Below, piece after piece: positions 10,737 to 51,384 of a DNA stretch of 64,000 bases (positions within the stretch are counted from its first letter, which is position 1; each line of letters starts with the position of its first letter). The translations under genes were made by a program, and so were the position numbers. Below the pieces are notes generated by a model, which saw only the letters and a program-made list of their open reading frames with translations, ran no database searches and was not told the DNA's origin. Source of the DNA: Botryllus schlosseri (lineage: Eukaryota); assembly GCA_051294905.1 (NCBI GenBank), contig CM119371.1, positions 7,442,001-7,506,000 of the forward strand. The letters are read 5' to 3'.

Positions 10737-12157
10737 CTATCTCTTTACAAATACAGATTTGTAAATTTTAAAACCTTGATCTACTTTTGGCGTAACTATA
10801 GTCCATTTGTCTCGCGATATATCATACTTTTCAAATTCATCAGAGGTTTCGCAATCTGTTACTGCAAAAATGCACTTGTCAATGTGATACGCAGAAACTC
10901 GACCGTGACGAGCATTCATAGAAGATAATGAACTCCATTGAGCTGAAGTAACATCGTAACATTCTACGCTGTCGACTTCTATTCCTTTTGTCCACCCGCC
11001 GATCACAAATATCTTTTGATCAACTGCAACAACACCACTCGCACAAACAAGATATCTCATTGGGTCGAGATCAACCCACTCTGATGAGGATGGAGTGAAT
11101 CTGCAGAATGAAGAAACTCTGACATCATCTTGTCCTCTACCTCCGATACAATAGATTGAATCATTCAATGATACGAGACTTGTATTTCGAATCGCGGTAG
11201 GTTTGTCTTTTAGTTGAAACCATTGATTCGTGAGGGAAGTAAATATTTCCACGTCACTTGTTGCTTTAGTATAACCACCAACAACGAATATTGATCCCGG
11301 CAAAGAAACTGAGTAAGGAAACTATCCATGATCACAAATCATATCTTTGATCCTTTCCCATTTTGAATTTTTGCTCTGAAAATCGAGTCGACGAACTGAT
11401 TTATCACAACATAAAACGTAGATATACGAGTCTAAAGAAATCGCCGAGAAATGTTTTAAATTCTTAAACTTAACATCATGAAAATTCTCTACTTTCTCAG
11501 TTACCGGATGGAAGGATCGGATACAATCTGCCTGATCATCAAAAAGAATTATCAATTCATCTTTGCTGATTACTTTGCTTGTTTTCTGTGATGCTTTCAA
11601 CAGATGACCATTGATCAACTTGTACAGTCCTAAGTCGTTACTGATAATTTGATTTGATTCCAAAAGACGTTGTAAATATGCCGGAGAGACTTCATCAAAC
11701 TTGATCGCTTCAAGACATTCGCGCAAATATTCCTGATTTTTGCGATTTTTCTCGACCCAATTGAACAGCAACGTTAGTTTTTCTTCTTCGCATAATTTTG
11801 ATTGTTCCAACTTCACAAAATTCCGGATGAAAGTTTTTTCAATATTTCCAAATTCAGGTTGGTTTGAAATTTCCATAATATTTTCATGAAAACATTCTCT
11901 ACATCGCGTAGACACGGCATCCAGTCCATACATATCGGCGACATTTCTTGTGGAAAAGTAATTCTCTACATTAACTGATTCCTCCAAAAAGTCGGATACT
12001 GCCTGTTTTATGTCATCCAACTGCATCATGATTGCGACATGAAGAAGATCGTTCATCTTTTCATCAGGAATCTCAAATTTGCCCGAATATATGAAATCGA
12101 TGCAGTTTTTCACACACTGAGAATCGACCTCTTTCAAAACGACTTTTCCTTCCCGAC
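10737..12157 (-). pseudogene. Kelch-like (BTB-BACK-Kelch) pseudogene K0, 5'-truncated with an in-frame TAG
   Basis: ORFs 11322-12191 and 10737-11303 are in the same frame, separated by one TAG (11322-11324; DHG*FPYSVSL vs DHGYHPRSVSL in K4). Homology begins abruptly at REGKVVL, so the first ~66 codons and the promoter are missing. Confidence 0.9.
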
Positions 12158-12192
12158 GGATAATTTGTACAGCCTGCTCAGGTGAGTGCAAT

Positions 12193-13824
12193 CTATCTCT
12201 TCACAAATACGGATTTGTAAATTTCAAAACATTGATCTACTTTTGGTTTCACTATAGTCCATTTGTCTTGCGATATATCATACTTTTCAATTGCATCAGA
12301 GGTTTCTCTATCTGTTACTGCAAAAATCCACTTGTCAATGTGATAAGCAGAAACTTGACCGTGACAAACATTCATAGAAGATAACGAAGTCCACTGAGCT
12401 GAAGTAACATCGTAACATTCTACGTTGTCGATATTATTGAGTTCATTTATTCTTCCGCTTTTCCCGCCGATCAAAAATATCTTTTGATCAACTATCACAA
12501 CACCACTCATACAAACAGGATATCTCATTGATTGGAGATCAACCCACTCTGATGAGGATGGAGTGAATCTGCAGAATGATGAAACCGTGGCACCATCTGG
12601 TGCTATACCTCCGATACAATAGATGGAATCATTCAATGATACGAGACTTGGTGAACGAATTGATGTAGGTTTGTCTTCCAGTTGAATCCATTGATTCACA
12701 GGTGAAGTAAATATTTCCACGTCACTTGTTGCTTTATTATAACTTCCACCAACAACGAATATTAATCCCGACAATGAAACTGAGGGAGGACTCCTTCCAT
12801 GGTCACGATTCATATCTTTCATCCTTTCCCATTTTGAATTTTTGCTCTGAAAATTGAGTCGATGAACTGATTGATTCCTGCATAAGACGTAGATATATGA
12901 GTCTAGAGAAATCGCCGAGAAATGTTTCAAATTCTTAAACTTCTCATCATGAAACTTGTCTACATTCTCTGTTACTGGATTGAAGGATCTGATAATATCT
13001 GCCCCACGATCGAAAAGAATTATCAATTCATCATTGCCCATTTCTTCGTTGGTTTTCTGTGATGCTTCCAAAGCTTTTAAAAGATGCCCAGTGATCAACT
13101 TGTACAGTCCCAAGTCGTTTGGGTTTGATTCCAAAAGACATTCTAAAAATCCCGGAGAGACTTCATCAAACTTAATAGTTTCAAGACATTCTTGCAAATG
13201 TTCCTGATTTTTCCGATCTTTTTTGGCCCAATTTAACAATAACGTTAGTTTATCTTCTTCACATAACTTCGATTTTTCTGAGATCATAAATTTCAGGATG
13301 TTCGATTTTTCAATACCTCCAAATTCAGGTTGGTTTGATATCTTCATGATATTTTCAATAAAAAATGCACTACATTGAGTAGAGAGCGCATCCAGTCCAT
13401 ACATATCGGCCACGTTTCTTGTGGAAAAGTAATTCTCTACATTAATTGATTCATCCAAAACGTCAGATACTGCCTGTTTCACATCTTCCAACTGCATCAT
13501 GATTGCGACATGGAGAAGATCGTTCATCTTTTCTTCAGGAATCTCAAATTTGCCAGAATATATGAAATCAATGCAGTTTTTGACACACTGAGAATCGACC
13601 TCTTTCAAAACGACTTTCCCTTCGCGACTCTCTTTAGTGTCGTGTTTCAACATAGCTTTGAAATAAGCGCAGCCAGCCGACAATACATTCTTGTGAGTGT
13701 AATAGACATCATCTTCTACTTGAATTATGAAATCACAATGATCGTTTTCTTGCTTCATTCGATGTAATTCTTCCATCATCTTCACTGAATGTTGCTCTAC
13801 ATTTCGAGACACAATCTGCACCAT
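12193..13824 (-). CDS. Kelch-like protein K1 (BTB/POZ + BACK + Kelch repeats; putative CUL3 substrate adaptor), single ORF
   Basis: BTB motif CDFIIQV..YYTHKNVLSAGCAYFKAML, BACK region NVENYFSTRNVADMYGL, kelch motifs IFVVGG/IYCIGG/IFLIGG..VECYD...W. The ATG is codon 4 of the listed TTG-start ORF. Confidence 0.92.
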   Translation of the reverse strand: MVQIVSRNVEQHSVKMMEELHRMKQENDHCDFIIQVEDDVYYTHKNVLSAGCAYFKAMLKHDTKESREGKVVLKEVDSQCVKNCIDFIYSGKFEIPEEKMNDLLHVAIMMQLEDVKQAVSDVLDESINVENYFSTRNVADMYGLDALSTQCSAFFIENIMKISNQPEFGGIEKSNILKFMISEKSKLCEEDKLTLLLNWAKKDRKNQEHLQECLETIKFDEVSPGFLECLLESNPNDLGLYKLITGHLLKALEASQKTNEEMGNDELIILFDRGADIIRSFNPVTENVDKFHDEKFKNLKHFSAISLDSYIYVLCRNQSVHRLNFQSKNSKWERMKDMNRDHGRSPPSVSLSGLIFVVGGSYNKATSDVEIFTSPVNQWIQLEDKPTSIRSPSLVSLNDSIYCIGGIAPDGATVSSFCRFTPSSSEWVDLQSMRYPVCMSGVVIVDQKIFLIGGKSGRINELNNIDNVECYDVTSAQWTSLSSMNVCHGQVSAYHIDKWIFAVTDRETSDAIEKYDISQDKWTIVKPKVDQCFEIYKSVFVKR

Positions 13825-14904
13825 GATTGTCAATCAACTATAATTATCCTACGATTATTATAATATAGTCAAGCACTGCTATTGAAGTAAAGATGATTAG
13901 TTAACTCTAGTAATGCCTGTTGAAAGAATCATAATACGTCCATCAACGTCACGAGTATGAATTGAAGGAAATTCAACTACACACAAGGTGAACACTGAAC
14001 AGTGCTAAATCAGAGGCATCCCTGCCATAATGCAGTAATGAAAACTTCTTACATCGATTTGCCTCAAGTTTTATTCTTGTATCAACACGAAACCAAAGAG
14101 TTATTGCGGTCGATTACCACCACCTCGCGAATGATAGAGTTGATTACCCGTATTTTGGAACATCAAAAATATTTTCATACTGTGGTATATTCCAGGGGCG
14201 GCCGCATCTGTTTCAATGCTCCAACCGAACATCACAAAAATTGGTTTTAAAGTAGCCGCAACACGAAAGATCACGCTTATTTCACTCAGAGATGCCACTG
14301 GGATATTTCAGAAAAACCCAGATGTGGAGGCCAAGTAAACCCAGATCCTATATTTTACTTAAATATCGATAAGATAACTGTGAAACTGGAGCCTGACAGT
14401 CATCAATTACAGTAATACGGTTATGGAATCCTTTAACATTGAATCTCCAATAGTTCAGGGAAGGAATGGACATAGTTTATTTTTGTCCTTGATGTTTTTG
14501 CGGTAATACACCGACTCACGATAGACATACACACGATCTGTGCATATGCAATGAATACCATGAGTGCATGATGTGCATATGCCGCTGGACAGTGGACAAG
14601 GAAGGTGCAGATAATAGCCTGATTCATGCTATATATTTTGCTCGGTTAACACTGCAAATATGTTGTTTTCCTCAAGACACATTGCTATGAAACAATTGCC
14701 GCGCGGCGTCAATACTTAATGGAGTATTAAATATATCATTGCACTGCAAATGGTCGTAAGCTCGTAACAGTGCCACCGATTCCCCATTTCTGAGGATGAT
14801 TTTCGTGTATTTTCAGTGACCTGACCAGATTGAAAGTAATAGCTTTCGATTGATTAATCCTGGCACAATCACTTTGATCTGAGATAATGACACATACCCA
14901 TTTT

Positions 14905-15952
14905 GGCCCCGTGGATATACTCAGATATCGCAGATATCGCAGATATCGCATATATCGCAGATATCACTACTGTGGATATACTCAGATATCGCAGATATCG
15001 CAGATATCACTGTGGATATAGTCAGATATCGCAGATATCACAAAAAACAGCAGACATAGAGGTCATATAAAGGTCACACGTTGTTTGAAACGTTCCAGGG
15101 TGCAGATATCGCGTCTGAAGCATGTCCGGGTCCATTCAGTGCGAAGATATCAGGTTCGCACCTTATCTGGGGGTATTTGCTGCGCAGATATCAGCTCCGA
15201 AGCATGTTCGAATCAAAATAATGCGCAGATATCAGCTCCGGAGCATGTCCGGATATATATAGAGCGCAGATATCAGGTCCGGGCCATACCTGGGTTCTTT
15301 CGATGCGCAGATATCAGCTCCGGAGCATGTCCGGATCAAAATAGAGCGCAGATATCAGGTCTGAGTCATGTCTGGCGCTGTTTGATGCGCAGATATCAGC
15401 TCCGGAGCATGTCCGGATATATATAGAGCGCAGATATCAGGTCTGAGTCATGTCTGGCGCTGTTTGATGCGCAGATATCAGCTCCGGAGCATGTCCGGAT
15501 CTATATAGAGCGCGGATATCAGGTCCGGGCCATACCTGGGTTCTTTCGATGCGCAGATATCAGCTCCGGAGCATGTCCGGATCAAAATAGAGCGCGGATA
15601 TCAGGTCTGAGTCATGTCTGGCGCTGTTTGATGCGCAGATATCAGGTCTGAGTCATGTCTGGCGCTGTTTGATGCGCAGATATCAGCTCCGGAGCATGTC
15701 CGGATCTATATAGAGCGCGGATATCAGGTCCGGGCCATACCTGGGTTCTTTTGATGCGCAGATATCAGCTCCGGAGCATGTCCGGATCAAAATAGAGCGC
15801 AGATATCAGGTCTGAGGCATGTCCGGCGCTGTTTGATGCGCAGATATCAGGTCTGAGGCATGTCTGGCGCTGTTTGATGCGCAGATATCAGCTCCGGAGC
15901 ATGTCCGGATCAAAATAGAGCGCAGATATCAGGTCTGAGGCATGTCTGGCGC
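14905..15952 (+). repeat. Left TIR arm: 9-bp CAGATATCG repeats followed by an array of 41-bp subrepeats
   Basis: Core GCGCAGATATCAG(C/G)TC recurs every 41 bp with a few interchangeable unit variants. Reverse complement of the right arm. Confidence 0.9.
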
Positions 15953-15966
15953 CAATTGGAGCGAAG

Positions 15967-18858
15967 ATGTCAGCTTTTGTTGCGCAGCACCGAATTTTGC
16001 AAGTTGACAAACCAGCGTTGGGATCAAGTCACTACCTTCGAGTCACGAGTCATTTCGAGTCATTGCACATTTTGACTCGAGTCAAGTCAAGTCAATCTAT
16101 TTTCAAAGGTGACTCGAGTCAAGTCAAGTCACTCGATTTTTGGAAGTGACTCGAGTCAAGTCGAGTCAAGTCAAGTCAAGTCACGAGTCAAGTCACATTT
16201 CAAGTCAAGTTGGCTATTCGAAGTATGAGACATGATTACGTCATTGCTATTTGCTAGCTGTCTGAACTACAGATTGAGTGGTCATTGATTCCGAACCGAT
16301 GAACGAATATAGAGTTAAATATAAACGCAAAAGGCGCTGCATCGCTCACATATAGGCATACGTAGAACTGTTTAACAGCGTAATTGCATAGCCTCAGTTT
16401 ATAGTTACCAGCCAAAATCGAGAATAGAGAAACAAATTGATAAGTTGCAATACATTACCCATTTACAAAAAGATATGATACAATTCGAGCCTGCGCCAAT
16501 GGTTGACCTTGAGAATTATATAAACTATAATCGAATTGAATTTCAAAAAAATATCATGTTTGGTTAAGGTAAGAACAGAGAACAGAAATAAACATTTGGC
16601 TATGTTATTACTTTACTACTAAAGTTACGACAGACAACGTAAGCTGTAAGCTTCGATCACTTCGTTTGCGGTCAATTTATTTTGTGAGAGAACAATCGAG
16701 GTTCAGTGAAACGCATGATCATTGAATGATTGGTCGCTCTCACTGGTTACTCCAGCGTTTCGCGAACAATCCGAACATATGCAATACAGTGATTTTAATC
16801 GACATCGATTACTTGATGACTTGAAATTGACTCGTGAATTTTGCTCCGAATCACGAGTCAATCCACATTTCTGATACGCCGAGTCAAGTCAAGTCAAGTC
16901 ATTTTAGCAAAGTGACTCGAGTCAAGTCAAGTCATGCGAAAAATGTGACTCGAGTCATCCCAACACTGTGACAAACTATATCGCTTCGAAGTATCAAAAG
17001 TCATTCACAAATATTTTTCCAATAGTTTGCCTTTTGTGTTTGATGACTTTTTCATGCCTGCTAAAAATGTCCAGCAGTTGGTGGAAGTACCCAAAGGAAG
17101 AAAAGAAAACGTTTACTTCGTTGTGAATAACAAATCAAATATTCGAAGACAAGGAGACAACCGTAATAATGTTTTCATAGACGATTGTGGTGCTTGGGTT
17201 AGTTTTCATCGATCCAAGGTGTACTACATCAAAGACAATGACAGTGATAATCTAAAAAATATCTACAAATACGAAGGGGAGATTTGTAGGCGGGTTAGAG
17301 TTGGAAAAGATGATTATGCATACATCCCACTGCCATCATCGTCCGATGATATCACCCAGCGCAATTCTGTTTAAGAATTGTGCATTTATTTTTGCAAAAA
17401 TAGGGTAAACCCAAATTATAAACGTAAAATATCATGGATAAAGGATTGCAACAAGGAAATTGCAGTGTATGAATACCTGGGAACACATCCCGGGCACGAT
17501 ATTCATGGAAATGCCGGATCTGCTTCAGCTAGTAATTATGTAAGAAGCTCAGTCGAGTTTCTGAAGGAAGTAAAGCGACTTACCACGTTCATGCCACCCA
17601 AAAAGGCCTACACAACCCTTATGAAAAATAATGATCTGAAAATGCAACCGGAAAATCATCAGCAAATGCGTGACCAAAAGCGACTGAGAAAAAGAAAAGA
17701 AATCCAATCGGAAACTTCCGTTAATAAGAGACAGTGCTCCATCTCAGACGACTATCAAAGGGTGATGAGCATGGTAACAAGTCACCCTTATGTGAGATCA
17801 TGCGTAATGGATAAGAGCGAACCATTTCGCGCAACCCTTTACATTAAGGATTAAATAAGAGACATTAAACGATGTTGCTTTTCAGGTCACACCCCGCTGT
17901 GCGTAGACAAAACGTACAATCTAGAGGGAATGTCTTTGCGACAATCACGGCCTATAAGAGCTTGACCGTAACAAGAACAGATTCTACAGATTCTGCGGAA
18001 TCAGCTATATTCATAGGCCCTATATTTCCGCATACGAAATCATCTAAAATGTCATACGCTAATTTTGCTAACCAACTGCAAAAAATCTTTCCGGACGCCG
18101 GCAAGCTAATAATTGGAACAGACGATGAAATTGCGATGCACAGCACGTTATTGAAAGCACTATCCGGTGTAGAACATATTCTATGCTTCAATCACTTGAA
18201 AAAAAATTTAAAGGATCACCTAATTAAGGTCGGGGCAAGTGAGTTTATTCGAAAGTCCATAATTGAGAGCGTAACGAGTCTATTGGAGTCATCGTGCCTT
18301 GCCATGTTCTCGTCACGAGAGGATAATTTAAGAAGTTATTGCGAGACTAATTGTCCGCAGATAATGTCATATATTAACCACGGATTCCTTGAGAAGGCTC
18401 GCTGTAAAGTCTGGGCACCAAACAAGACACTGCGCTCCCGCAATGCTGCTGCAGACAGATTTTTCACCACAAATAATGTGGAAACTGCAAATTTTATGAT
18501 TAAAGTTGAAACTCAGTGGAAAAAACATTCAAAAGTGTCGGACTTGATCGTAGTATTGTACGATTTAGTGACAAGCATGTTCTTAGACCTTCAACGATCA
18601 TTTTATAAAGCTGGGTTGTATCGGCTTAAGGAGCAGTTTTCGAAGTATCAGATGGGTTTGTATGAATGGGATGCTAAATCAGACAAAGAAAAAAGATTGA
18701 TATTTGATAGATTCCTGTCAGAGCCCATCATGCGTCATAAGAAATGTCAGACATCATCCGATGGAAAGTTGCTGGTAACAGTGCCTGAAAAAAACGCGGG
18801 GAAAAAGCCAGGCCATGCCGGCCGAAAACGCAAGACAAAACTGAGGACATTTCTGTGA
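15967..18858 (+). pseudogene. MULE DDE transposase, disrupted (MITE insertion, 2 stops, 1 frameshift)
   Basis: ATG 15967 is in frame with ORF 17027 once the MITE and one TSD are removed. Stops at 17372-17374 and 17852-17854; frameshift at ~17925. Motifs LCVDKTYNL (D1), IIGTDDEIAM (D2), HILCFNHL (CxxH), TTNNVET (E), basic tail GKKPGHAGRKRK. Confidence 0.85.
16013..16968. mobile_element. GACTCGAGTC/AGTCA-rich hAT MITE (CAG[C/T]GTTGGGAT ends) inserted in the MULE transposase
   Basis: TIR CAGCGTTGGGAT...ATCCCAACACTG. Perfect 8-bp TSD TGACAAAC (16005-16012, 16969-16976). Confidence 0.9.
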
Positions 18859-19776
18859 AACCTTTTAATCCTTATAACAATTGGATAATACAGTGCCTTC
18901 GTTTCAGTCTATTCGTTCTTGTTTCATTTATACAACGTCCGTAGTGGGCCTATACTCAGCATGTTTTTCATTTTTGTGTTTTTTTTGTGTGCTTTCAATA
19001 CATTAAATGCCAGTTAAATTGAACAACGCAATGGCATTAACAACAGAGCTTACCCGTGTCGTCTGCGCTGCGACTGTCAGCTTAATCGAATACGCAGGAT
19101 AGTCGGCAAACGACTCGCTATCACTCTCTCTCTCTCGTCTTCTCTCTTCTCTCTCTCTCCATCTTCCTCCTCTTCTCTATTCTCTCCTCTCTCCCCCACA
19201 CGTTAGCACCAAATACGAGCCGTGCCGAATTCTTCGGCCAGTTTGGTTTGGTTATTGGTTGTGGTATTCATGGTGTTTGTCGACTACTAAGGTAAATTGG
19301 TCATTTACATCAGGCCGATATTGCTCATTTAATTATTCAGTGTAGCTGCCGACTTGTAGCTCGGTCCACTTATTCTACGCTTTATGTAATACATCGATTA
19401 CGCGGATGAGATGGCGAAGAGTATCCTAGATAAACCTCCAACACATAGGTAGGAATTCTGGAGTCCACCTCGGTCGGACTCGAACCCACAACCTATCGGT
19501 GTCGTATTGTATATATAACTGTATAGAATAGTCTAAGATCAGACAGCCAACTGGGCCTAGGCGATGTAAAGAGGAGGCATGCACACTGAATGAAAGTAAA
19601 TAGAAGATAATATAAAGTGGCAAGTGACGGAAAGCGAGATCGATATGTCAGGCCGTGGTTCGGTAAATGGTGAGGGCTGACTAGTATGTATTTAAAGCGA
19701 ATTCTGTAGCCGTATTTCTTAAAATATACACTGCTGTGTCTCGAAAATCCGCGCTGTGCGCATGGAAGAGACTCCT

Positions 19777-20912
19777 GACCTGATATTAGCGCTCTATTTT
19801 TAACTGGACATGCTCTGGAGCCGATATTTGCGCATCAAAACAACCCAGGTATGGCCCGGACCTGGTATTCGAGCTCTATATATATCCGGACATGCTCCGG
19901 AGCTGCTATCTGCACACTATTTTGATTCGAACATGCTTCGAAGCTGATATCTGCGCATCAAACAGCGCCAGACATGCCTCAGACCTGATATCTGCGCATC
20001 AAACAGCGCCGAACATGCCTCAGACCTGATATCTGCGCTCTATTTTGATCCGGACATGCTCCGGAGCTGATATCTGCGCATCAAACAGCGCCAGACATGC
20101 CTCAGACCTGATATCTGCGCATCAAACAGCGCCGGACATGCCTCAGACCTGATATCTGCGCTCTATTTTGATCCGGACATGCTCCGGAGCTGATATCTGC
20201 GCATCAAAAGAACCCAGGTATGGCCCGGACCTGATATCCGCGCTCTATATAGATCCGGACATGCTCCGGAGCTGATATCTGCGCATCAAACAGCGCCAGA
20301 CATGACTCAGACCTGATATCTGCGCTCTATATATATCCGGACATGCTCCGGAGCTGATATCTGCGCATCAAACAGCGCCAGACATGACTCAGACCTGATA
20401 TCTGCGCTCTATTTTGATCCGGACATGCTCCGGAGCTGATATCTGCGCATCAAACAGCGCCAGACATGACTCAGACCTGATATCTGCGCTCTATTTTGAT
20501 CCGGACATGCTCCGGAGCTGATATCTGCGCATCGAAAGAACCCAGGTATGGCCCGGACCTGATATCTGCGCTCTATATATATCCGGACATGCTCCGGAGC
20601 TGATATCTGCGCATTATTTTGATTCGAACATGCTTCGGAGCTGATATCTGCGCAGCAAATACCCCCAGATAAGGTGCGAACCTGATATCTGCGCACTGAA
20701 TGGACCCAGACATGCTTCAGACGCGATATCTGCACCCTGGAACGTTTCAAACAACGTGTGACCTTTATATGACCTCTATGTCTGCTGTTTTTTGTGATAT
20801 CTGCGATATCTGAGTATATCCACAGTGATATCTGCGATATCTGCGATATCTGAGTATATCCACAGTAGTGATATCTGCGATATCTGCGATATCTGAGTAT
20901 ATCCACGGGGCC
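19777..20912 (-). repeat. Right TIR arm of the MULE (41-bp subrepeat array, inner units degenerate)
   Basis: Inverted copy of the left arm. The outer ~500 bp are nearly identical; inner unit order and number differ. Confidence 0.9.
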
Positions 20913-22885: not shown

Positions 22886-22896
22886 TTCTAAATGTT

Positions 22897-27129: not shown

Positions 27130-28635
27130 AGACTTTACCCCCCTTCGAATTTGCTGGAAATCAGTGAGCCATATTTAATGCATGATTTCTATGTCAGTTC
27201 GTAATGAGTAAATGCTGGATGTAGGAGTCAGTAGGCTATAAATATATGGTGCGCTGATGTTAGGGAAGATAATATGTTGATATGAAAACCATGGGATTCC
27301 ACTTGATTCATTGAAAACTGATATTGTCTACACTGTGGATAGAATGTTTGCTATATATTTCTATATTGTCACCATTTCTGGATGTGGTACAAAATTACAC
27401 AGAAACTCACATGTCATCACAATTCCTGGAAATCTTGATATCGAGATCTTGTCTTTTGGCAGGTGACAAAGCCTGAAAGAAAATCTCAAAATTACACAGC
27501 CGATAAAATAGACTTCAACAGTAAAATTGAACAATGGTGCCTCAAACTGTATAGAGAACAAAAATATCAGAAAATACTTTCATTTGGTGTAGAAAATATG
27601 TTGGTGTCCACAGGGAAGTGGTTCACTTGGGTTTATCCATTCCATCTTTACAACATTACAGAGACCTCAAAGTGCCCGTTCTTATAATTTAGGAAGATTT
27701 GGTTGTTCATTGAACTCTGGCCAGTGCCCAATGTCACATACATGATGTAATCAAGCATCTCATAGAGCTTCAACCATAATAGCCACTAATGAACAGAAGC
27801 ATGCATGAATGTATGTTTTTCAACGGGATTTCGAGAACATGCAGCACATGCAAGGATAGCTATTTGGCCATACCTCAATTATTCTACTAGCAGTCACATA
27901 AGGTTCAATCGGATCACATAAAACAGGATAGTAACTTCAGTGTAGGAGCAAATTGAAAACTGACAAGCTCCGGATATCATCTTGGTTATTGTAATGATAA
28001 TAGAATGTCCATGTTCATTGTTTACCCCAACTGTGGCTTGAAAATATGCGCCCAGATAAAACTCACCTTGAATGACATTCGGTAAACGTGCTTGAAAGTT
28101 GCAACTTGCATGACTCTGATCCAAAGAAAATCCTTGCCAGTGCTGATAAAGAAAGGATACATCGGGTTAGGAATGATTCAAATTAGAACTTTACAGTCTG
28201 CAGTCCCAATGTGTTCAGACTTGTTATTATAGATCAAAAATAAGATCGTTAATAATGATTAACTTTATTGTGAATAATTTTTATCATATTAAAACACATC
28301 AACGTTAATGTCACATTCGATTGTTTGCCTTCAAAATAAAAAAATAAAATTGTAAAACGATAAATTTAGAATTACTCACTTTCATTTCCCTGGTAGAATT
28401 GTCGCACGTTGATGCTTGTCAGAGTCCAACTGATTGACATCTGTCGAGATTGTCATGCAAACTTCTTTCATCATCAAAGCCATTTCACATCCGACGACCA
28501 GACTATTGAATGATATGTTATATATATATGAGTATGATGATCTTCTGATTGCAATCCACTGTAATAAAATGAATAATGGTTAAAAAGTAAGAATAATGAA
28601 TTTATATGCAGCACATATTGCTCAACCCTGGAAAT
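27130..28635 (-). pseudogene. Decayed FN3-like glycoprotein gene, least-interrupted copy C2
   Basis: Nearly open minus frame over ~27170-27650: MEWINPSEPLPCG..FNFTVEVYFIG..FNESSG..FPNISAP, with several N-x-S/T sequons. Also GEFYLGAYFQ (ORF 27894-28124). Confidence 0.45.
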
Positions 28636-29884
28636 CGTACCAGCGGATGTGGTAGGCCTACATAACAAGTAGCCGATAGTCGCCTCATACAAATATAATC
28701 AAAATGGGTTCATGGTTGATTATGCGCACAAATTTAGTATCCTGATCGCGGATAACAAAAATGTGCCGACAGTTTTTGAATCAGCGCTTCCAAATATGTC
28801 AAAAACAATAAAATAACAAGATAAACAAAAATTTAATCCCCTATTATCAGGCCTACATAGTTGATCACTGTTAATCCACGATTCTCATCAAGTAAGATAA
28901 CCAATTACGCATACAAACTTGTAACTTGTAACCTAAGCTCAATTTGCAAGCACATACTGAGTATAGCCAACGATTTGAAGAGTGAATAACATGAGCAAAT
29001 ATCGTATGCAGCTCAACAAACAAACTGAATTACGGGATGATTGAAACTTAAACAGCCTACAGCAGGGGTGTGAAACTTGAATTGCGTTGCGGGCCGTATT
29101 CAAGCCTTCAAATCACTCGCGGGACAGATCAGTCAACTAATTGAAAAATGTTACCTTGCGCTCTTGCTTTTCAACATAATAGCATATATATATATAATAG
29201 ATAATACACGGCTCAAAGAGTTTGTAAAGTAGCAAGTAGCAACACCTTTATTCGCAAACAATGAAATTGGCAAAATATGGTGATTGTCTTTTTGTATACA
29301 GTTCAGACCCGTTAAAACAGTAGCAGCAAAGACGATATAAGTTGGCACATTCTATACTATGCTCCCTTTGAATCAGTTGTAATCTGGCGTTAGCCTCGTA
29401 TATGCATTGGAGTTACATACATAGGCTACATACAAGACATATATTTGGACACGCGACGGTTGGTATTTGGTTTATTATTATTACATGGCAAGTCCGGTTA
29501 GTTTCATGTCTGTTGACCCATTGGGTCGAAAGTGACACAGCAGTGCGTCCATAGATATGCCCTGGCCTACAGAAATCAGTACGTTCCAAACTCCGGACAT
29601 TTCAGGACTCAGCTGAACACTTGTACAAACTACCAATCTAGATTGTTGACGGTTAAGAGTAGCTCTAGTGGCTGATTTTGGGAAAGCGAGTAATTCTAGT
29701 ATCGTCGTTTGGCGTGAATAATGATAATGGTGCTCCAAAAACCGTCCATTTCACATTCTCAAACCCATTTTTTAAAGGTATATTCTATTACCAACTCAGT
29801 AAATTGTATTTCAAGTACCGCAGTCTTTATGGAACTGAAAATCCATTTTTGTACCAGTCTGCTCAGCCGAGTTATGAGTGCAAT

Positions 29885-35735: not shown

Positions 35736-35737
35736 GG

Positions 35738-37568
35738 ACTTTACTTCCATCCAAATTTACTGGTCTTGGTGTGCAATATTTATTGCATGATATCTTTGTC
35801 GGCATGGAATGAGTAAATATTGGATGTAGACATAGGTAGAGTGTAAATATTGGTCTGCTCATGTCACAGGAGATAGCATAGTGCTATGAATATCCATGGG
35901 ATTTCATTCTGAAATTTTCAACATCACGGACAGAATGTTTGCTATATATTTGTTACACTGTTGACATTCTGGATATGCCACAGTATTTTATAGCAACTCA
36001 CCTGAAATCATCACGATTCCTGAAAATCTTGATATCGAGATCTTGTCTTTTGGCAGGTGACATGGTCTGAAAGAAAATCTCACAATTACACAGTCGGAAA
36101 ATGGACTTGAACCAGACTTGGACAACTGGAAAATTTCGAGCTTTTTTGAATTAAATTCGAGCTACAGCTACAAAGTTTTTCCAAATTTGAGTAGAATTGA
36201 AATTATAGTTACACGGTTATTTCCAAATTAGATCAAAATTATAAGTATAGCTAGCTTTGTCCCAATTGAATTACAATTACCGAATTCGCGAAAACTTAGA
36301 TATTGAATCAAGTTCCGTTAATACCAAATCATGGTCCATTCTGATGAGCATGACTTGAGTATAGCATGCTGCATGAAAATAGCAAATGTCTGTAGAACAA
36401 GCTTGGCTCGTTTCATACTATACAGTTCGCCTGTAGCATTTACAGGAAAACCAGAAAGTAAACTAGAAATAAAATGATAGCATGGAAACATTTTACAAAT
36501 TAGATTAGAATTAGATTACCGGTACCAACATTTAGGAAAATTTGTTCGGTTATTAGAATCTGCCCTGTGCCGAATGTCCCATTAACAATATAATCAACTA
36601 TCTCGTAAAAGAGTTCAATCATGATGATCACTAACAAATACAAAGGCATGCTTGAATGAATGCTTTTAGACGGGACTTCAAGAACATGCAGCACTGGGAG
36701 GGTAGCTATTAGTCATACTTCAATTGTTCTATTAGCAGCCATTCACGGTTCAATCAGTTCGTACAAACCGGCATAATAACTGCAGTGTTAGAGCAAATTG
36801 AAAACTGATATCATTATGTTAACTTCACTAATCAATTCTTTAATTACTTCTGTAGGTGCAAATAGAATGTTGATGTCTGTCCGAATTCTGACTTGAAAAT
36901 ACGCAGCCAGATAAAACTCACCATGCATGAAAATTGGTAAATTGGTAGAAATAATAGCCAAAAGACGTTCTAAAAATGCCGGTGAGACTGCATCAAACTT
37001 TATTGCTTCAAAACATTTGTGCAAATGTTCCTGATGTTCAAAGTTGCAACTTGCTTGAATCTGATCGAAAGAAAATGCTTGCCTGTGATGATAAAGAAAT
37101 GATACATAGGGTTAGGATCGATTCAAATTCGAACTTCACAGTCACTCAATATGTTCAGACTTCTTGTTATAGATATAAATATGATTGTTACTAGTGTTTA
37201 AGTAAAGTTCATTGTGAATAATTTTATTATTTCAAAACACCCCACCATAGCATCGATGGCAAATAATCGAATCCGAAAGCATTGATTTTACGAAAAGGTA
37301 AATTCAGAATTACTCACTTTCATCTCCCGGGTAGAATTGTGACATATTGATGCATGTCAGTTCCCAAATGATTGATATCGGTCGAGATTGCTATGCGAAC
37401 TTCTTTTATCACCGAAGCCCTTTCCCATCCGACGACCAGACTATTAAATGATACGTTATCCTATATGATGATATTCTGATTGCAATCCACTGTAACAAAT
37501 TGAAGAGTGGTTATGAAAAGTAAATTCAATGAATCGATATACACCACAGATTGCTCAAGCCTGGCCAT
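35738..37568 (-). pseudogene. Decayed FN3-like glycoprotein gene, copy C3
   Basis: ACCATGG start at 37568 gives MARLEQSVVYIDSLNLLFITTLQFVTVDCNQNIII*DNVSFNSLVVGWE. Downstream GEFYLAAYFQ and ANRTIEV. Interrupted by repeat insertions. Confidence 0.45.
36958..37035 (-). other. ~78-bp fragment of KLHL coding sequence inserted in intergenic DNA
   Basis: Encodes QEHLHKCFEAIKFDAVSPAFLERLL, matching the BACK region of the paralogues (e.g. 30824-30900). Absent from the other C copies. Confidence 0.85.
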
Positions 37569-38852
37569 GGTACCAGCAGAAGTGGTAGATAACGAGTTCC
37601 CGATAGTCGTCTCATATAAACATATTCGAAATGGTTGGTTTCAAGTAAAAATCAGGAATCTTGATCATGGATAGCGAAAAAATTGCACTTCTTTATTCGG
37701 TGCACTTAAATTCATCAAAAACAATAAAAATGACAAGATAAACAAAAATCTCTCATCTGATTTTATTTTGTACTTGATCATTGTTCATCCAGGATTCTCA
37801 TAAAATAAGATAGGCATATAAACTCGCAACTTGGAAACCAAACCCTACTTGGAAGCGCATCCTGTTGTGAGCAATAGGCCTATTCCCTCTAAGCTGCGCA
37901 TGAGCGCAAATGCGTAGTACTGAGACGGTCTCGGCACACAAAAATATAAAGTGATGCCTTTTTTTATCCGTTACGCACTTTTGCCCAAGGGACAGCGCAG
38001 TGAGTTGGCGAGTGTGCGCAAAAATTAGAGGGAGCACAAATTGTGAGTGTTGCTCTTGAAGAGCAAATAACTTGATATCATTTGCGACTCAACAAGGGAC
38101 AGATTATCGGCAATCACTTGAAAATTTTAACATATTGAATTATGGGAAGGGTGAAAATCATACTGCCTACAGTAGGTTCCCCAGTCCTGATATTGGCCTT
38201 ATAAGTCATGTGGAATAAATTGCACAAGTCATCAAAATCAACGACTATATTTCTATTGAGTAAGGAACTACTGTAAATATATGAAGGGCTGTTTCAACTG
38301 AAATTGCTGGCAGATTTATACACTTTCTGTATTTCTCCACAAAATTACTGGTTACTATTGCTATGATATTCATCAAATAGTACAAAACTGGACCTACAAA
38401 GTTTCGCTGCTTTGAAACAAAAAATGCACAATCTTCGAGGCAATTATGATCGATTGAAAATGAAATGAATCGAAAATTGTAATTGTGAGCGACTTTATTT
38501 TAATCACGTATCAGCTGCAGACTTGTACAAACTACTAATCTAGTTGCTCCATGGTCAAAGAGTAGTTCTAGTAGCAAATTTTGAAAGCGAGTAGTTTGGC
38601 GTGAATAGTGATACTGGTGTTCTGTTGTGTGACGTTCTTGCAGCTATTGTTAGCTTGGAGTCAACACTACTAACAATGGCGTAGCCAGGGAATGGGTTTT
38701 GAGGGTCGGAAACCGTTCATTTCGAATTCTAAACCCTGTTCTTTTGAAACGCAGATTCTATTTCCAACTCAGTAATTCACATTATAAGTACTGCAGTTGC
38801 TTCAGAACTGAAAATCCAGTAAATTGTACAAGTCTACTCAGGTGAGTAAAAT

Positions 38853-40487
38853 CTATCTCTTCACAAATACGGATCTGTAAATCTTAAAACATTCATCTAC
38901 TTTTTCTGTCACTATAGTCCATTTGTCTTGCGATATATCATACTTTTCAATTACATCAGAGGTTTCGCAATCTGTTACTGCAAAAATCCACTTGCCAATG
39001 TGATATGCAGAAACTCGACTATGACAAGCATTCATAGAAGATAATGAAGTCCACTGCGCTGAATTAACATCGTAACATTCTACGTTGTCAATGTCGCCTA
39101 TCATTCTTCCACTCCGGCCACCGATCACGAAAATCTTTTGATCAACTGCAACAACACCACTTGAACATACAGGATATCTAATTGGGTCGAGATCAACCCA
39201 CTCTGATGAGGATGGAGTGAATCTGCAGAATGATGAAACTAAGAAACCATCTTGTCCTCTACCTCCGATACAATAGATGGAATCATTCAATGATACAAGA
39301 CTTGTTGAACGAATCGCTGAAGGTTTGTCTTTTAGTTGAATCCATTGATTCATGAGGGGAGTAAATATTTCCACATCACTTGCTGCTTTAGGATAACTTC
39401 CTCCAATAACAAATATTGATCCCGACAAAGAAACTGAGCGAGGATGGTTTCCATGGTCACAAATCATATCTTTCATCCTTACCCAATTTGAATTTTTGCT
39501 CTGAAAATTGAGTCGATGAACTGATTTATTCCGACATAAAATATAGATATATGAGTCAAGAGAAATCGCCGAGAACTGTTTCAAATTCTTAAACTTCTCA
39601 TCCTGAAACTTCTCTAGTTTTTCAGTTACTGGATTGAATGATCGGATACAATCTGTCTCATCATCAAATAGAATGATCAATTTATCATCGACAATTTCTT
39701 CATTCATTTTGTCCGATGCTTCAGGAACTTCTAAAAGATGTCCAGTTATCAATTTGTACAATCCGAAGTCGTTTCTGATGATTTGGTTTGATTTCAAAAG
39801 ACGTTCTAAAAATGCCGGAGAGACTTCATCAAAGTTGACGGCTTCGAGACACTTGTGCAAATGCTCCTGATTTTTCCCATTTTTTTCAACCCAATTGAAC
39901 AGCAATGTTAGTTTGTCTTCTTCACATAACTTCGATTTTTCAGACTTCACATAATTCAGGATGTTAGTTTTTTCAGTATTTCCAAACTCCGGCTGGCTTG
40001 ATACTTCCATGATATTTTCATGAAAAAATGCTCTGCATCGCGTAGAGACGGCATCCAGTCCATACATATCGGCGACATTTCTTGTGGAAAAGTAATTCTC
40101 TACATTAACTGATCCCTCCAAAACATCAGATACTGCCCGTTTCACGTCTTCCAACTGCATCATGATTGCGACATGAAGAAGCTCATTCATCTTTTCTTCA
40201 GGAATCTCAAATTGGCCCGAATATATGAAATCGATGCAGCTTTTCACACACATAGAATCGACCTCTTTCAAAACAACTTTTCCTTCGCGACTCTCTTTAG
40301 TATCGTGCTTTAACATAGCTTTGAAATAAGCACAACCAGCCGACAATACATTTCTGTGAGTGTAATAGACATCATCTCCTACTTGAATTATGAAATCACA
40401 GTGATCGTTCTCTTGCTTCATTCGATGTAATTCTTCCATCATCTTCACTGAATGTTTCTCTACATTTCGACACACAATCTGCACCAT
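38853..40487 (-). CDS. Kelch-like protein K3 (BTB-BACK-Kelch), single ORF
   Basis: Full-length open paralogue with the same motifs. Ends IYRSVFVKR*. Confidence 0.92.
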   Translation of the reverse strand: MVQIVCRNVEKHSVKMMEELHRMKQENDHCDFIIQVGDDVYYTHRNVLSAGCAYFKAMLKHDTKESREGKVVLKEVDSMCVKSCIDFIYSGQFEIPEEKMNELLHVAIMMQLEDVKRAVSDVLEGSVNVENYFSTRNVADMYGLDAVSTRCRAFFHENIMEVSSQPEFGNTEKTNILNYVKSEKSKLCEEDKLTLLFNWVEKNGKNQEHLHKCLEAVNFDEVSPAFLERLLKSNQIIRNDFGLYKLITGHLLEVPEASDKMNEEIVDDKLIILFDDETDCIRSFNPVTEKLEKFQDEKFKNLKQFSAISLDSYIYILCRNKSVHRLNFQSKNSNWVRMKDMICDHGNHPRSVSLSGSIFVIGGSYPKAASDVEIFTPLMNQWIQLKDKPSAIRSTSLVSLNDSIYCIGGRGQDGFLVSSFCRFTPSSSEWVDLDPIRYPVCSSGVVAVDQKIFVIGGRSGRMIGDIDNVECYDVNSAQWTSLSSMNACHSRVSAYHIGKWIFAVTDCETSDVIEKYDISQDKWTIVTEKVDECFKIYRSVFVKR

Positions 40488-45945: not shown

Positions 45946-45947
45946 GG

Positions 45948-48486
45948 ACTTTACGTCAATCCAAATTTACTGGTCTTGGTGTGCAATATTTATTTCATGA
46001 TTTCTTTGTCAGCTCGGAATGGGTAAATATTGAATGTAGACATAGGTAGAGAGTGTAAATATTGGTGTGCTCATGTCACCGGAGATAGCATAGTGCTATG
46101 AATATACACGGGATTTCATTCTGAAATTCTCAACATCACGGACATAATGTTTACTATATATTTGTAACACTGTTTTCAATTCTGGATATGTCACAGTATT
46201 TCATAGCAACTCACCTGATGTCATCGTGATTACAGAAAATCTTGAGGTTGAGATCTTGTCTTTTGGCAGGTGACAAGGTCTGGAAGAAAATCTCACAATT
46301 ACACAGCCGGCAAAATAGATTTAAACCAGAATCGAACAACTGGAAAATGTTCAGCTTTTCCAAAATAGAGTCGAGTTACAGCTGCAAAGTTTTTTCCAAA
46401 TTAGAGTAGAATTATAGCTACACAGTTATTTCCAAATTATATTAAAATCATGTTTATAGCTAGCTTTGTTCCAATTAGATTAGAATTCACACAAACTCAT
46501 GGTTCATTCTTAGGAGCGTGAATTGAGTATAGCATGCTGCATGATAATAGCAAATGTCTGTAGAGCAGGCTTGGCTCGTTTCGCACTATACAGTTCTCCT
46601 GTAGCATTTACAGGAAAACCAGACATTAGATTAGAAATAAAATTAGAGCATAGAAACATTTTACAAATTGGATTAGAATTAGATTACCGGTGCCAGCATT
46701 TAGGAAGATTTGTTTGGTTATTAGACTCTGCCCTGTGCCCAACGTCACATCAACGATGTAATCAACTATCCCATAAAGCAGGGGCGGGCCGGATCCGGCC
46801 CGGGAAGGCATTTTTTCCAGCCCACGGACAGTTTTCTGTCTTACATGATAATGTGGCCCGTGGCCCCAGTCTGCCAAGATTCCCCACTACTTGTTTATTA
46901 CGTCAAATTTTAGTAAACTTATGTTATTATATACGTGTATTCGCAGCGTTGCGAGAGTGGAGCTTACGCGTAAGTTCGTCGAAGCGAGAAGACTTGCATT
47001 ATCGGCATTTACGATGCACTCAACCCTAATGTCGTCTGTGGTAATCATGATTTTTGTCGACTTCAATGGCCATTTACACCAGGCTGATACTTCTTATTTT
47101 TGATTCCGTAAGCGCCGACTTGTAGCACGGCACACTTCTAGACTTCTGTAAGGCATCGCTTATGCCAGAGGTTGCCAACTCAAAACGGGTCGCAGGCCAC
47201 TTTTCAGATTTTGTAGAGGATGCGGGCCGCACGAATTCAATATCGAGATTAATTAGGCCACACAGTTGAACAACGACGCTATCTCGTCACCTACTTAACC
47301 CTAATGAATTGATATCTTGGTAAATCAGGGTTACCGGGCTTATCGAACGCCTCGAAATCTTAATTAGTGATTGCACCCTGTGTTGATTGATCAGATAGAA
47401 GCAGACATGGTGGCGCCTGTATGACAATGCTGTTCTCAAATCCACATTGTCTTCGCCATTATCAGTGAGAAATGGCTTTGAAATGACATCGCTGTTGTTA
47501 AAATACATTCATTAAATTCGACACATTCTTTGTATGTGTGGATAAATGGGCGTATAATGAATCCGGCCTGCCTAGTACTTAATTTTCCTATATCAGGCCC
47601 AACGACTGGACAAGTTGCCCGCCCTTGCCATAAAGGAATTCAATCTTGATCAGCACAAACGAATACAGAGGCGTGCTTGAGTGAATGCTTTTAAACGGGA
47701 TTTCGAGAACGTGCAGTACTGGCAAGGATAGCGATTAGCCATACATCAATTGTTCTATTAGCAGACACACACGGCTCAATCAGTACCTACAAACCGGGAT
47801 AAAAACTTCAACGTAGGGAACGAATTGAAAACTGATGTCATTAAGTTGACTTCAGTAAGCAATTCCTAAATACTTAGGCAGGTGCGAATAGAATGTCTAT
47901 GTCCATACTAATTGTGGCTTGAAAATACGCAGTCGGATAAAACTCACCTTGAATGACAATTTGTAAACTTGCTTGACTCTGATCGGAAGAAGATCATTGC
48001 CTGTGCATATAAAGAAAGGATACATCGGGACAGAAATGGTTCAAATTTGAACTTTACAGTCACCCAATGTGTTCAGACTTGTTGTTACAGATAGAAAGAA
48101 GATTGTTACTAGTGGTTGAGTTGAATTTATTGTGAATAATTTTACAATTCAAAACACCCCACCATAGCATTGATAACAAATAGGTAATCGAATCCGAAAT
48201 CATTGATTTTACGAAAATATGAAATCAGAATTACTCACTTTCATCTCCCGGGAAGATTTGTCAGACATTGATGCATGTCAGATTCCAACTGATTGACGTT
48301 GGTCGAGATCGTCATGCAAACTTCTTTCATCACCAAAGCAAATTCACATTGGACAACCAGACTATTAAATGATACGTTATAAATGATGATCTGCTGATTG
48401 CAATCCACTGTAACCAATTGAAGAGTGGTTATGAAAAGTAAGATTAATGAATCTATATACACCACAGGTTACTCAAGCCTGGCCAT
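45948..48486 (-). pseudogene. Decayed FN3-like glycoprotein gene, copy C4 (interrupted by MITE 46779-47627)
   Basis: ATG at 48486. ORF 48241-48465 reads VYIDSLILLFITTLQLVTVDCNQQIIIYNVSFNSLVV. Colinear with the other copies. Confidence 0.45.
46779..47627. mobile_element. hAT (Charlie-like) non-autonomous element
   Basis: Ends CAGGGGCGGGC...GCCCGCCCTTG. Perfect TSD CCATAAAG. Confidence 0.8.
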
Positions 48487-49770
48487 GGTACTAGCAGATG
48501 TGGTGGATAACGAGTTACCGATAGTCGCCGCATATAAACATAATCGAAATGGTTAGATTTGAGTAAAATCAGGAATCTTGATTTTGGATAGCGAAAAAAT
48601 GACACTTCTTTATTCGGCACACTTAAATTCATCAAAAACAATAAAAATGACGAGATAAACAAAAATTTTATCCGATTTTATTTCGTACTTAATCATTGTT
48701 CATCCACGATTCTCATAGAATAAGATATTCATATCAACTCGCAACTTGGAACCTAAACTCTATTTGGAAGCGCATCCTGTTGTGAGCAATATTCTCTATA
48801 AGCTGCATACGTGCGCAAATGCGCCGTGCTGAGATGGTCTCTGCACACAAAAAAATCGAAGGGATGACTTTGTTTTAGTCGTTAGTCGTTACGCACTTTC
48901 GTCCAAGGGTCTGCGCAGTGAGTTGGCGAGTGTGCGCAGACTCGTCAAAAAATAGAGGGAACACAAATTGTGAGTATTCCTTTTGAAGAGCGAATAACTT
49001 GATATCGTATGCGATTCAACAAGGGACAGATCATCAGCAATGACTTGAAAATTTTAAAATATTGAATTATGGGAAGGTAAAACTCACACTGCCTACAGTA
49101 ATGAGTAGGTTCCGCACTCCTGATATTGGCCTTATAACTCATGTGAAATCAATTGCACAAGTAATCAAAATCATCGACCATATTTATATATTGAGTAAGG
49201 AACTACTGTAAATATATGATGGGCCGTCAGCTTTATACACGTTCCGTATATCTGCACAAAATTACTGCTTACTATTGCTATGACATTCATCAAATGGTAC
49301 AAATCGATCACACACCAAAATTTGAAAAACTGGACCTACAAAGTTCTGCCGCTTTGAAACAAAAAATGCACAATCTTCGAGGCAATTATGACGGATTAAA
49401 AATGAAATGAATCGAAAATTGTAATCGTGAGCAACTTTATTTTCACTCATCTATCAGCTGCAGACTTGTATAAACTATTAATCTAGTTGGTTCATGGTCA
49501 AAGAGTAGTTCTTGTCGCAAATTTTAGTGATAATTTCTAGTGATACTGGTGTTCGGTTGTGTGACTGCTAGCTTGGAGTCAACACTACTAACAATGGCGT
49601 AGCCTGGGAGTGGGTTTCAAGGGTCAAAAATTGTCCATTTCGAACTCCAAACCCTGTTCTTTTCAAACGCAGATTCCGTCTCCAGCTCAGTAATTCGCAT
49701 TATAAATACTGCAGTTACTTCGGAACTGAAAATCCAGTAATTTGTACAAGTCTGCTCAGGTGAGTGCAAT

Positions 49771-51384
49771 CTATCTCTTCACAAATACGGATTTGTAAAT
49801 TTTAAAACATTCATCCACTTTTGGTGTCACTAGAGTCCATTTGTCTTGAGATGTATCATACTTTTCAATTGCATTAGAGGTTCCTCCATCTGTTACTGCA
49901 AAAATCCACTTGTCAATGTGATAAGCATAAACTAGACCGTGACAAGCATTCATAGAAGATAATGAAGTCCACTGAGCTGAAGTAAAATTGTAACATTCTA
50001 CGTTGTCGACATTATTGGCTTCATTTATTCTTCCGCTCGTCCCACCGATCACAAATATCTTTTGATCAACTGCAACAACACCACTCGTACAAACAGGATA
50101 TCTCATTGGTTCGAGATCAACCCACTCTGATGAGGATGGAGTGAATCTGCAGAATGATGAAACCATGACACCATCTTGTCCTACACCACCTATACAATAT
50201 ATAGAATCATTCAACGATACGAGACTTGGTGAACGAATTGATGTAGGTTTGTCTTCTAGTTGCATCCATTGGTTCACAGCGGAAGTAAATATTTCCACGT
50301 CACTTGTTGCTTTATTGTAACTTCCCCCAACAACGAATATCGATCCTGACAAAGAAACTGAGCGAGGATGGTATCCATGGTCACAAAGCATATCTTTCAT
50401 CCTTTCCCATTTTGGATTTTTGTCCTGAAAATTGAGTCGATGAATTGATTGATTCCAACATAAGACGTAGATATGAGAGTCTAGAGAAATCGCCGAGAAA
50501 TGTTTCAAATTCTTAAACTTCTCATCATGAAGATTCTCCACTTTCTCAGTTAATGGATTGAAGGATCGGATACAATCTGCATCATCATCAAAAAAAATAA
50601 TTTCTTCGTTGGTTTTCTGTAATGCTTTTAAAGCTTTCAAAAGCTGTCCATTGATCAACTTGTGCAATCGCAAGTCGTTAGGGTTCGATTCCAAAAGACA
50701 TTCTAAAAATGCCGGAGAGACTTTATCGAACTTGATTGCTTCGAGACATTCGCGCAAATGTTCCTGATTTTTCCGATCTTTCTCAACCCAATTGAACAAT
50801 AACCTTAGTTTTTCTTCTTCGCATAACTTTGATTTTTCTGAGATCACAAATTTGAGGATGTTGGATTTTTCAATACCTCCAAATTCAGGTTGGTTTGATA
50901 TTTTCATGATATTTTCAATAAAAAACGCTTCACATCGCGTAGAGAGGGAATCCAGTCCATAAATATCGGCAACATTTCTTGTGGAAAAGTAATTCTCTAC
51001 ATCAACTGATTCCTCCATAACGTCAGATACTGCCTGTTTCACGTCTTCCAACTGCATCATGACTGCAACATGTAGAAGATCATTCATCTTTTCATCAGGG
51101 ATCTCAAATTTGCCCGAATATATGAAATCGATGCAGTTTTTCACACACTCAGAATCTACCTCTTTCAAAACAACTTTTCCTTCGCGACTCTCTTTAGTGT
51201 CATGTTTCAACATTGCTTTGAAATAAGCACAACCAGCCGACAATACATTCTTGTGAGTGTAATAGACATCATCTCCTACTTGAATTATGAAATCACAATG
51301 ATCATTTTCTTGCTTCATTCGATGTAATTCTTCCATCATCTCCACTGAATGTTTCTCTACATTTGTACACACAATCTGAACCAT
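49771..51384 (-). CDS. Kelch-like protein K4 (BTB-BACK-Kelch), single ORF
   Basis: Full-length open paralogue; shares the short ESNPND linker with K1. Confidence 0.92.
   Translation of the reverse strand: MVQIVCTNVEKHSVEMMEELHRMKQENDHCDFIIQVGDDVYYTHKNVLSAGCAYFKAMLKHDTKESREGKVVLKEVDSECVKNCIDFIYSGKFEIPDEKMNDLLHVAVMMQLEDVKQAVSDVMEESVDVENYFSTRNVADIYGLDSLSTRCEAFFIENIMKISNQPEFGGIEKSNILKFVISEKSKLCEEEKLRLLFNWVEKDRKNQEHLRECLEAIKFDKVSPAFLECLLESNPNDLRLHKLINGQLLKALKALQKTNEEIIFFDDDADCIRSFNPLTEKVENLHDEKFKNLKHFSAISLDSHIYVLCWNQSIHRLNFQDKNPKWERMKDMLCDHGYHPRSVSLSGSIFVVGGSYNKATSDVEIFTSAVNQWMQLEDKPTSIRSPSLVSLNDSIYCIGGVGQDGVMVSSFCRFTPSSSEWVDLEPMRYPVCTSGVVAVDQKIFVIGGTSGRINEANNVDNVECYNFTSAQWTSLSSMNACHGLVYAYHIDKWIFAVTDGGTSNAIEKYDTSQDKWTLVTPKVDECFKIYKSVFVKR

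Follow-up and report, generated by a model that had tools for sequence, protein, structure and literature searches.

Do the members of a tandem gene array that resembles known CUL3 adaptors differ in the pocket that captures their targets as a result of selection, and what might such proteins recognize? This question is raised by a 64,000-nucleotide stretch of the Botryllus schlosseri genome (GenBank assembly GCA_051294905.1, contig CM119371.1, positions 7,442,001 to 7,506,000), referred to here as the window. Its minus strand carries four uninterrupted BTB-BACK-Kelch open reading frames (ORFs) of 537-544 codons, K1-K4, together with one pseudogene, K0. An earlier note on this DNA had described a tandem array of intronless BTB-BACK-Kelch genes and had quoted a series of variable loop motifs. 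The array is confirmed, intronless holding for the coding sequence of K1-K4 while the 5' untranslated region may contain an intron, and the motifs are present in the translations. We find that pocket positions of these proteins have a ratio of nonsynonymous to synonymous substitution rates (dN/dS) above 1. What sets the family apart from known KLHL proteins is a pocket under positive selection among young paralogues.

Architecture, fold and selection in the substrate pocket

All four intact proteins pass the Pfam cut-offs for BTB, BACK and Kelch_1 with the domains in KLHL order, and they share 78-84% protein identity. The structure of K2, predicted with a 38-row alignment at a mean predicted local distance difference test score (pLDDT) of 91.4, consists of a BTB domain, a BACK domain and a propeller of six blades that the C-terminal strand closes. 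It supersedes an earlier model whose BTB domain was unreliable (pLDDT <50, residues 1-115); the 24 strands in six blades seen in that model keep the same registers in the later one. A 3-box hairpin (helices 132-142 and 145-157) follows the BTB domain, the Pfam BACK match beginning at 134. The best structural matches of K2 are KBTBD2 and KLHL22 in CUL3 complexes, and its propeller matches KLHL12 at a target template modelling (TM) score of 0.83-0.84. By architecture and fold K1-K4 are KLHL proteins, and their mode of evolution has precedents in other adaptor families. They share domain order, six-bladed propeller, a pocket of d-a and b-c loops and the Glu of the phi-x-E motif with the CUL3 adaptors KEAP1, KLHL3, KLHL12, KLHL22 and KBTBD2. 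They differ from these in showing only about 20% identity in structural matches, in lacking a double-Gly in blades 1, 2 and 6, in having Thr at phi and in their intronless coding sequence and tandem, short-lived copies.

Variability is unevenly distributed along the protein. The N-terminus and BTB domain are 90-94% identical among K1-K4 (93.6% over residues 1-60), and up to this point the near-invariance that the earlier note had claimed for the BTB region holds; BACK, at 74-86% identity (mean 80%), is no better kept than the propeller outside the pocket (82%). The hypervariability ascribed to the propeller loops belongs to single pocket positions, with 46% identity over 28 positions, and not to loops over their full length. 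Indels had likewise been placed in propeller loops, which is true of two of the five indel sites (b-c loops, K2 positions 364 and 463), the other three lying in BACK or the linker (positions 235, 254 and 265; the 5' truncation of K0 is excluded). Synonymous divergence (dS) between paralogues is ~0.16-0.41, depending on the domain.

The KLHL substrate pocket is built by the d-a and b-c loops, and contacts given for KEAP1 are S363, R380, N382, R415, R483 and S508 (passages of PMC4668279). These align to K2 positions 441, 458, 460, 490, 463 or 464, and 489, respectively. The pocket set comprises the KEAP1 contact registers over all six blades, 28 positions with invariant ones kept; the extension to all blades was made by hand after the variable columns had been inspected. 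Selection was analyzed with GY94 codon models on 533 gap-free codons of K1-K4, or on 462 codons when K0 was included. For K1-K4, twice the log-likelihood difference (2dL) was 23.6 for M1a-M2a, 28.7 for M7-M8 and 24.7 for M8a-M8, with M8 placing 3.4% of sites at dN/dS 6.5. Addition of K0 gave 2dL values of 26.0 and 26.2 and 7% of sites at 3.4, and when double and triple nucleotide changes were allowed the M1a-M2a 2dL was 14.6 (p 7e-4). Seven sites reach a posterior >0.9 (K2 numbering: 152, 319, 347, 416, 442, 458 and 506), and six of these lie in d-a or b-c loops on the top face of the modelled propeller (6/106 versus 1/427 elsewhere, loops taken from model strands; Fisher p 3e-4), codon 152 being the sole such site outside the propeller. 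Sites with dN/dS above 1 thus exist and concentrate on the top face, both as anticipated in the earlier note.

Partitioning sharpened this picture. The dN/dS was 0.14 for BTB, 0.40 for BACK, 0.22 for propeller strands and 0.42 for bottom loops, and the 28 pocket positions gave 1.96 (p 5e-4), or 1.64 (p 0.015) under the multi-hit model, with the remaining 80 top-loop positions at 0.50. Across seven fits (two frequency models, multi-hit, gap-flank removal and three trees) the pocket stayed above 1 at p <0.02 in every case, in a range of 1.64-2.06, so that a cullin end under purifying selection is combined with a positively selected substrate end. Sliding the pocket registers by 1-4 residues yielded dN/dS values of 0.34-0.86, below 1 in 8/8 cases, and the observed pocket value was matched by none of 5000 sets of 28 sites drawn at random from the same loops. 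The six positions aligned directly to published KEAP1 contacts give 2.7 (2dL 7.6). The register classes that carry the signal are GG+1 (2.8), the loop-end position (2.8) and R+2 (2.1).

It is highly unlikely that relaxed exposed loops combined with multi-nucleotide mutations, gene conversion or misalignment imitate positive selection here. Such an artefact would be favored by the small number of sequences, by the improved fit with double changes (rate ~0.04), which lowers the pocket value from 1.96 to 1.64, and by identical runs at p <0.05 in 3/10 gene pairs, all ending at codon 146-147. The signal nevertheless persists under multi-hit models, gap-flank removal and wrong trees, and the adjacent loop positions are under purifying selection. 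In M1a null simulations the observed M1a-M2a value was reached in 0/28 plain and 0/29 mosaic-tree runs, the null maximum being 7.3. These mosaic nulls and the absence of topology clustering among 51 informative sites (p 0.74) give no support to gene conversion as the origin of the signal.

Several results pull against positive selection focused on the pocket. The models saw only 4-5 sequences and ran in our own code, with site posteriors obtained by naive empirical Bayes, and the pocket p-values are optimistic because the set was fixed after the variable columns had been seen. Of 14 sites with posterior >0.5, five fall outside the propeller, and BACK is as variable as the non-pocket propeller. 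Taken over their full length, the top-face loops do not exceed 1 (b-c 1.04, p 0.81; d-a 0.59), and positive selection along whole loops is rejected on these values. Two of the five register classes give no value above 1 that the test supports (R+1 1.3, 2dL 0.3; GG+3 0.94), and the mosaic nulls beat the nominal 5% level in 2/29 runs. For so few sequences the selection signal is robust; the site lists are tentative.

Tandem duplication, recent gene death and transcription

Collinear homology (72-83% alike) links the downstream flanks of K0, K2, K3 and K4, and the copies therefore arose by tandem duplication at the DNA level, the duplicated unit being the gene plus its downstream flank. Separate retroposition of each copy is rejected on the same grounds, though their ancestor may have been a retrogene. 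K0 starts at codon 67, ~35 bases past the stop of K1; its codons 1-66 and upstream DNA are gone. The 3' flank of K1 is correspondingly cut after ~35 bases, and no AATAAA or ATTAAA is found in the following 1200 bases. The simplest reading is that one deletion took both the K1 3' flank and the K0 5' end. K0 has a single in-frame stop (11322-11324) and no frameshifts, and its terminal-branch dN/dS of 0.44 does not differ from the 0.38 found elsewhere and lies below 1 (2dL 9.5), from which it follows that K0 was inactivated recently. Homologous flanks, this pseudogene and a relic BACK fragment downstream of K3 together document tandem duplication with gene death. The stop of K0 sits at the codon that corresponds to K2 position 347, a positively selected pocket position. 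Two further segments, 3813-5115 and 6436-6732, are homologous to the K2, K3 and K4 downstream flanks and have no gene alongside; judged by sequence, they are possibly leftover array units or dispersed repeats.

In a profile-free search of 1.84 billion representatives of 50% clusters, the nearest relatives had 54-55, 46 and 43% identity. Of 20 relatives looked up from among the top matches, 8 have source names, and all are Styela clava kelch-like proteins that carry the automatic names kelch-like 3/8/12/20/24/28/30 (e.g. XP_039264566.1, XP_077971152.1). In a FastTree phylogeny of 92 rows (K1-K4 plus 88 of 152 matches, those of 480-660 residues), K1-K4 form their own clade (support 100) to the exclusion of the nearest outside protein (54-55%), and this clade is nested in a 35-row clade (Shimodaira-Hasegawa-like support 99) with all 8 named Styela clava proteins. 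The latter, divergent KLHLs themselves, have 25-31% identity to K1-K4, and none is an orthologue. On the best explanation, K1-K4 make up one local group within a young KLHL subfamily that is both expanding and decaying, itself part of an older KLHL radiation of ascidian type. Divergent KLHLs of seemingly ascidian type (P0007-P0051) form a broad clade that includes at least 8 Styela clava members under unrelated automatic names, and many of its members have Thr or Asn at phi of the CUL3 motif.

The exact K1-K4 sequences are absent from the protein collection (0/4), and a word-indexed search returned no extra close paralogues (3 relatives from 4241 candidates and 2 short ones from 116). A look-up among indexed RNA runs listed none that carries the genes, a result that says nothing about their expression. 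Scans sensitive to close relatives only gave no hits among 231 pattern matches in metagenome contigs and 119 in viral contigs. Tunicate-specific Klhl duplications are noted for Ciona in PMC7517041, the consulted portion of which contains no selection test on them, and the Styela clava genome paper (PMC7540406) has neither 'kelch' nor 'BTB' in its main text or in one supplementary file. No earlier description of the K1-K4 family was found in the open literature, a scope outside which most subscription papers lie.

Four public runs were mapped to K2 at 80% likeness, where depth is no measure of copy number. At the 19 coding positions listed, another letter occurs in 22-56 contigs of run X1 and in 19-53 of run X5, which points to tens of sequences related to K2, a figure that does not distinguish between alleles, pooled animals and errors. 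Both RNA runs, one single-cell and one bulk, cover the K2 coding region. Single-cell coverage is one-directional over the coding bins (4.6-98 versus 0-1.2) and would be that of the sense strand provided that read 2 is sense, which is usual for common kits. This evidence has a weak side: most K2-mapped RNA reads are <95% alike (744/818 and 1952/2074, counted over the whole 3-kb stretch with repeats included), which makes this evidence for transcription of the family and not of K2 itself. In the bulk run 96% of mapped reads continue into unlike sequence, which weakens the bulk evidence, and RNA supports 0/15 of the joints listed. The single-cell reads peak (depth 71-98) at 31016-31217, within the coding region of K2 and close to the border between BTB and BACK, and not at an end; this may reflect internal priming or a family member with a different end.

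Proposed docking on CUL3 and candidate targets

In the mechanism we propose, each protein would dimerize via its BTB domain, the dimer would dock on CUL3-RBX1 through BTB and 3-box, and the shallow pocket of the six-bladed propeller would capture a target for ubiquitylation. Purifying selection would conserve the scaffold and positive selection would push pocket residues apart, and with such a constant scaffold and selected pocket the copies would recognize different or changing targets. We infer BTB dimerization from the N-terminal strand and helix. Because residues 1-60 are near-identical between copies, mixed dimers with two different pockets would be possible; if they form, they would multiply specificity combinatorially. 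Setting target identity aside, we regard it as fairly likely that K1-K4 belong to a family with a selected pocket and a CUL3 adaptor role.

CUL3 binding is probable. KLHL3 no longer binds CUL3 when A77, M78 or E85 is mutated (passages of PMC3616122), and these residues match A57, M58 and E65 by spacing. All three are invariant in K1-K4, E65 is conserved in 84/92 aligned rows, and in the K2 model a short helix at residues 64-68 occupies the position of the CUL3-contact helix alpha-3.1 of KLHL3. Against this, the phi of phi-x-E is Thr (T63) in K1-K4, and the large hydrophobic residue that buries most surface against CUL3, M83 in KLHL3, is missing (motif as described in parts of PMC3616122). Among the 92 rows, 49 have Met, Leu or Phe at phi and 32 have Thr or Asn, these 32 belonging mainly to the ascidian-type clade; Thr may indicate either a shifted CUL3 docking in ascidians or weaker binding. 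A CUL3-independent protein whose propeller binds variable ligands and which sequesters them or scaffolds something else, the docking site being altered in this clade, would account for Thr or Asn across much of the clade and for positive selection at codon 152 in the second 3-box helix. It is improbable, as the identity of E65, A57 and M58 among K1-K4, the low dN/dS of BTB and the modelled helix at the place of alpha-3.1 all speak against it.

As for the targets of such adaptors, the analogy with nematode F-box genes and fish finTRIMs would most favor fast-evolving foreign or selfish proteins, and we give this an about even chance. A defence or conflict role would, by the same analogy, fit the selection pattern, though it is unproven. 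Nematode MATH-BTB adaptors form a birth-death repertoire like F-box genes, and Thomas (2006) reportedly described nematode cullin adaptor repertoires. Plant S-locus F-box (SLF) proteins are clustered intronless cullin adaptors whose divergent binding domains jointly cover variable targets; they are CUL1-type adaptors with a known target. Nematode F-box genes share with K1-K4 tandem birth and death, a conserved cullin end, a selected substrate end and, as a proposal, foreign-protein recognition (parts of PMC8665587). The nematode repertoires use another cullin adaptor and binding fold and comprise hundreds of genes versus probably tens here, and unlike in them, selection in K1-K4 falls on a pocket defined by structure. 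The finTRIM, btr and trim35-like genes of teleosts are chordate E3 multigene families with a positively selected C-terminal binding domain (PMC3137616), but are RING ligases with B30.2 and not cullin adaptors; antiviral data exist for some.

It is quite unlikely that each pocket adapted once to a separate endogenous substrate and is now stable, with no arms race. The recent death of K0, the relic fragment and the truncated K1 flank speak against such one-off specialization, gene turnover of this kind being unusual for fixed developmental adaptors, as do the many variants that two contig sets show at a single locus and the lack of any outside relative above 55% identity. On the other side, the dS range between paralogues means that the comparison reads past divergence and not current polymorphism. 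Furthermore, the d-a and b-c loops of KLHL proteins vary from one paralogue to the next but stay conserved within each (as stated in part of PMC10146909), loop differences between KLHL paralogues thus being normal, which also tells against recurrent pocket selection. Reproductive or germline conflict, in which CUL3-RING ligase (CRL3) adaptors of testis or germline diversify against selfish elements or gamete proteins, is a variant of the best explanation with a different target class and seems unlikely. The intronless coding sequence agrees with it, and a gene annotated as Kelch-like protein 10, which may or may not belong to the K1-K4 family, is 224-fold up in fertile Botryllus colonies (parts of PMC4523013). 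Family reads, however, are present in both RNA runs, with tissue unspecified, and a gonad link of K1-K4 would be conjectural.

CUL3 adaptors with a pocket selected toward different or changing targets remain our preferred reading. An ascidian system of intracellular non-self recognition built on CUL3, with tens of KLHL receptors whose pockets are in an arms race, would be a speculative extension of it; that viruses, selfish elements or foreign cell lineages are the opponents in such a repertoire is an equally doubtful suggestion. In orthologues of KEAP1, KLHL2, KLHL3 and KLHL12 no patch is as conserved as the pocket (parts of bioRxiv 10.1101/346668); in contrast to this slowest patch of known KLHL orthologues, the pocket is the fastest patch among the K1-K4 paralogues. 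Known KLHL adaptors are stable regulators, while here the pocket is the fastest-changing part of a turning-over family in an invertebrate chordate. By analogy, the idea of cullin adaptors as non-self sensors, which comes from nematode F-box genes, would extend to CUL3-Kelch proteins in a close relative of vertebrates. This idea lends itself to testing: roughly a dozen named residues on a fold that is well understood predict where specificity lies, and swaps between natural copies can be assayed. Taken without a target, the finding is an evolutionary signature, and function rests on analogy.

Feature coordinates and the rest of the window

Table 1. Features of the K0-K4 array, in positions of the window; codons in K2 numbering.
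Feature	Position	Strand	Remark
K0	10737-12155	-	5'-truncated pseudogene
K1	12193-13824	-	intact ORF, 543 aa
K2	29885-31516	-	intact single ORF, 543 aa
K3	38853-40487	-	intact single ORF, 544 aa
K4	49771-51384	-	intact single ORF, 537 aa; sister of K1
BACK-coding relic, ~40 codons	36929-37054	-	in downstream flank of K3; tblastn E 8e-10 and blastn
K0 downstream flank	9275-10161		collinear homologue of K2, K3 and K4 flanks (72-80%)
K2 downstream flank	27864-28761		homologous to K0 flank
K3 downstream flank	37037-37681		homologous to K0 flank
K4 downstream flank	47734-48598		homologous to K0 flank
Six propeller codons	29999-30562	-	K2 stretch; M8 posterior >0.9
Codon 319	30560-30562	-	M8 posterior >0.9
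Codon 347	30476-30478	-	M8 posterior >0.9
Codon 416	30269-30271	-	M8 posterior >0.9
Codon 442	30191-30193	-	M8 posterior >0.9
Codon 458	30143-30145	-	M8 posterior >0.9
Codon 506	29999-30001	-	M8 posterior >0.9
Codon 152	31061-31063	-	S/Q/R/E in K1-K4; second BACK (3-box) helix; posterior 0.97
T-K-E, codons 63-65	31322-31330	-	register of CUL3-docking phi-x-E motif; identical in K1-K4

Outside the array the window is rich in repeats. None of its 96 other frames (>=75 aa) matches Pfam at E 0.01, a scan that small exons would escape; neither neighbor genes nor a partner or target gene of the S-locus type were found among these frames. A 6-kb insertion lies between K1 and K2 (14905-20912), with inverted arms of ~1 kb that are 92% alike and consist of a 41/82-base satellite, and with an 8-base direct repeat flanking both sides. 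Its ORF of 328 codons (17872-18858) resembles a Mutator-like element (MULE) transposase (Pfam E 0.026, below cut-off; Atlas score 0.93), and the insertion is probably a Mutator-like DNA transposon. A 600-base self-palindrome at 58277-58877 is 82% alike to its own reverse complement.

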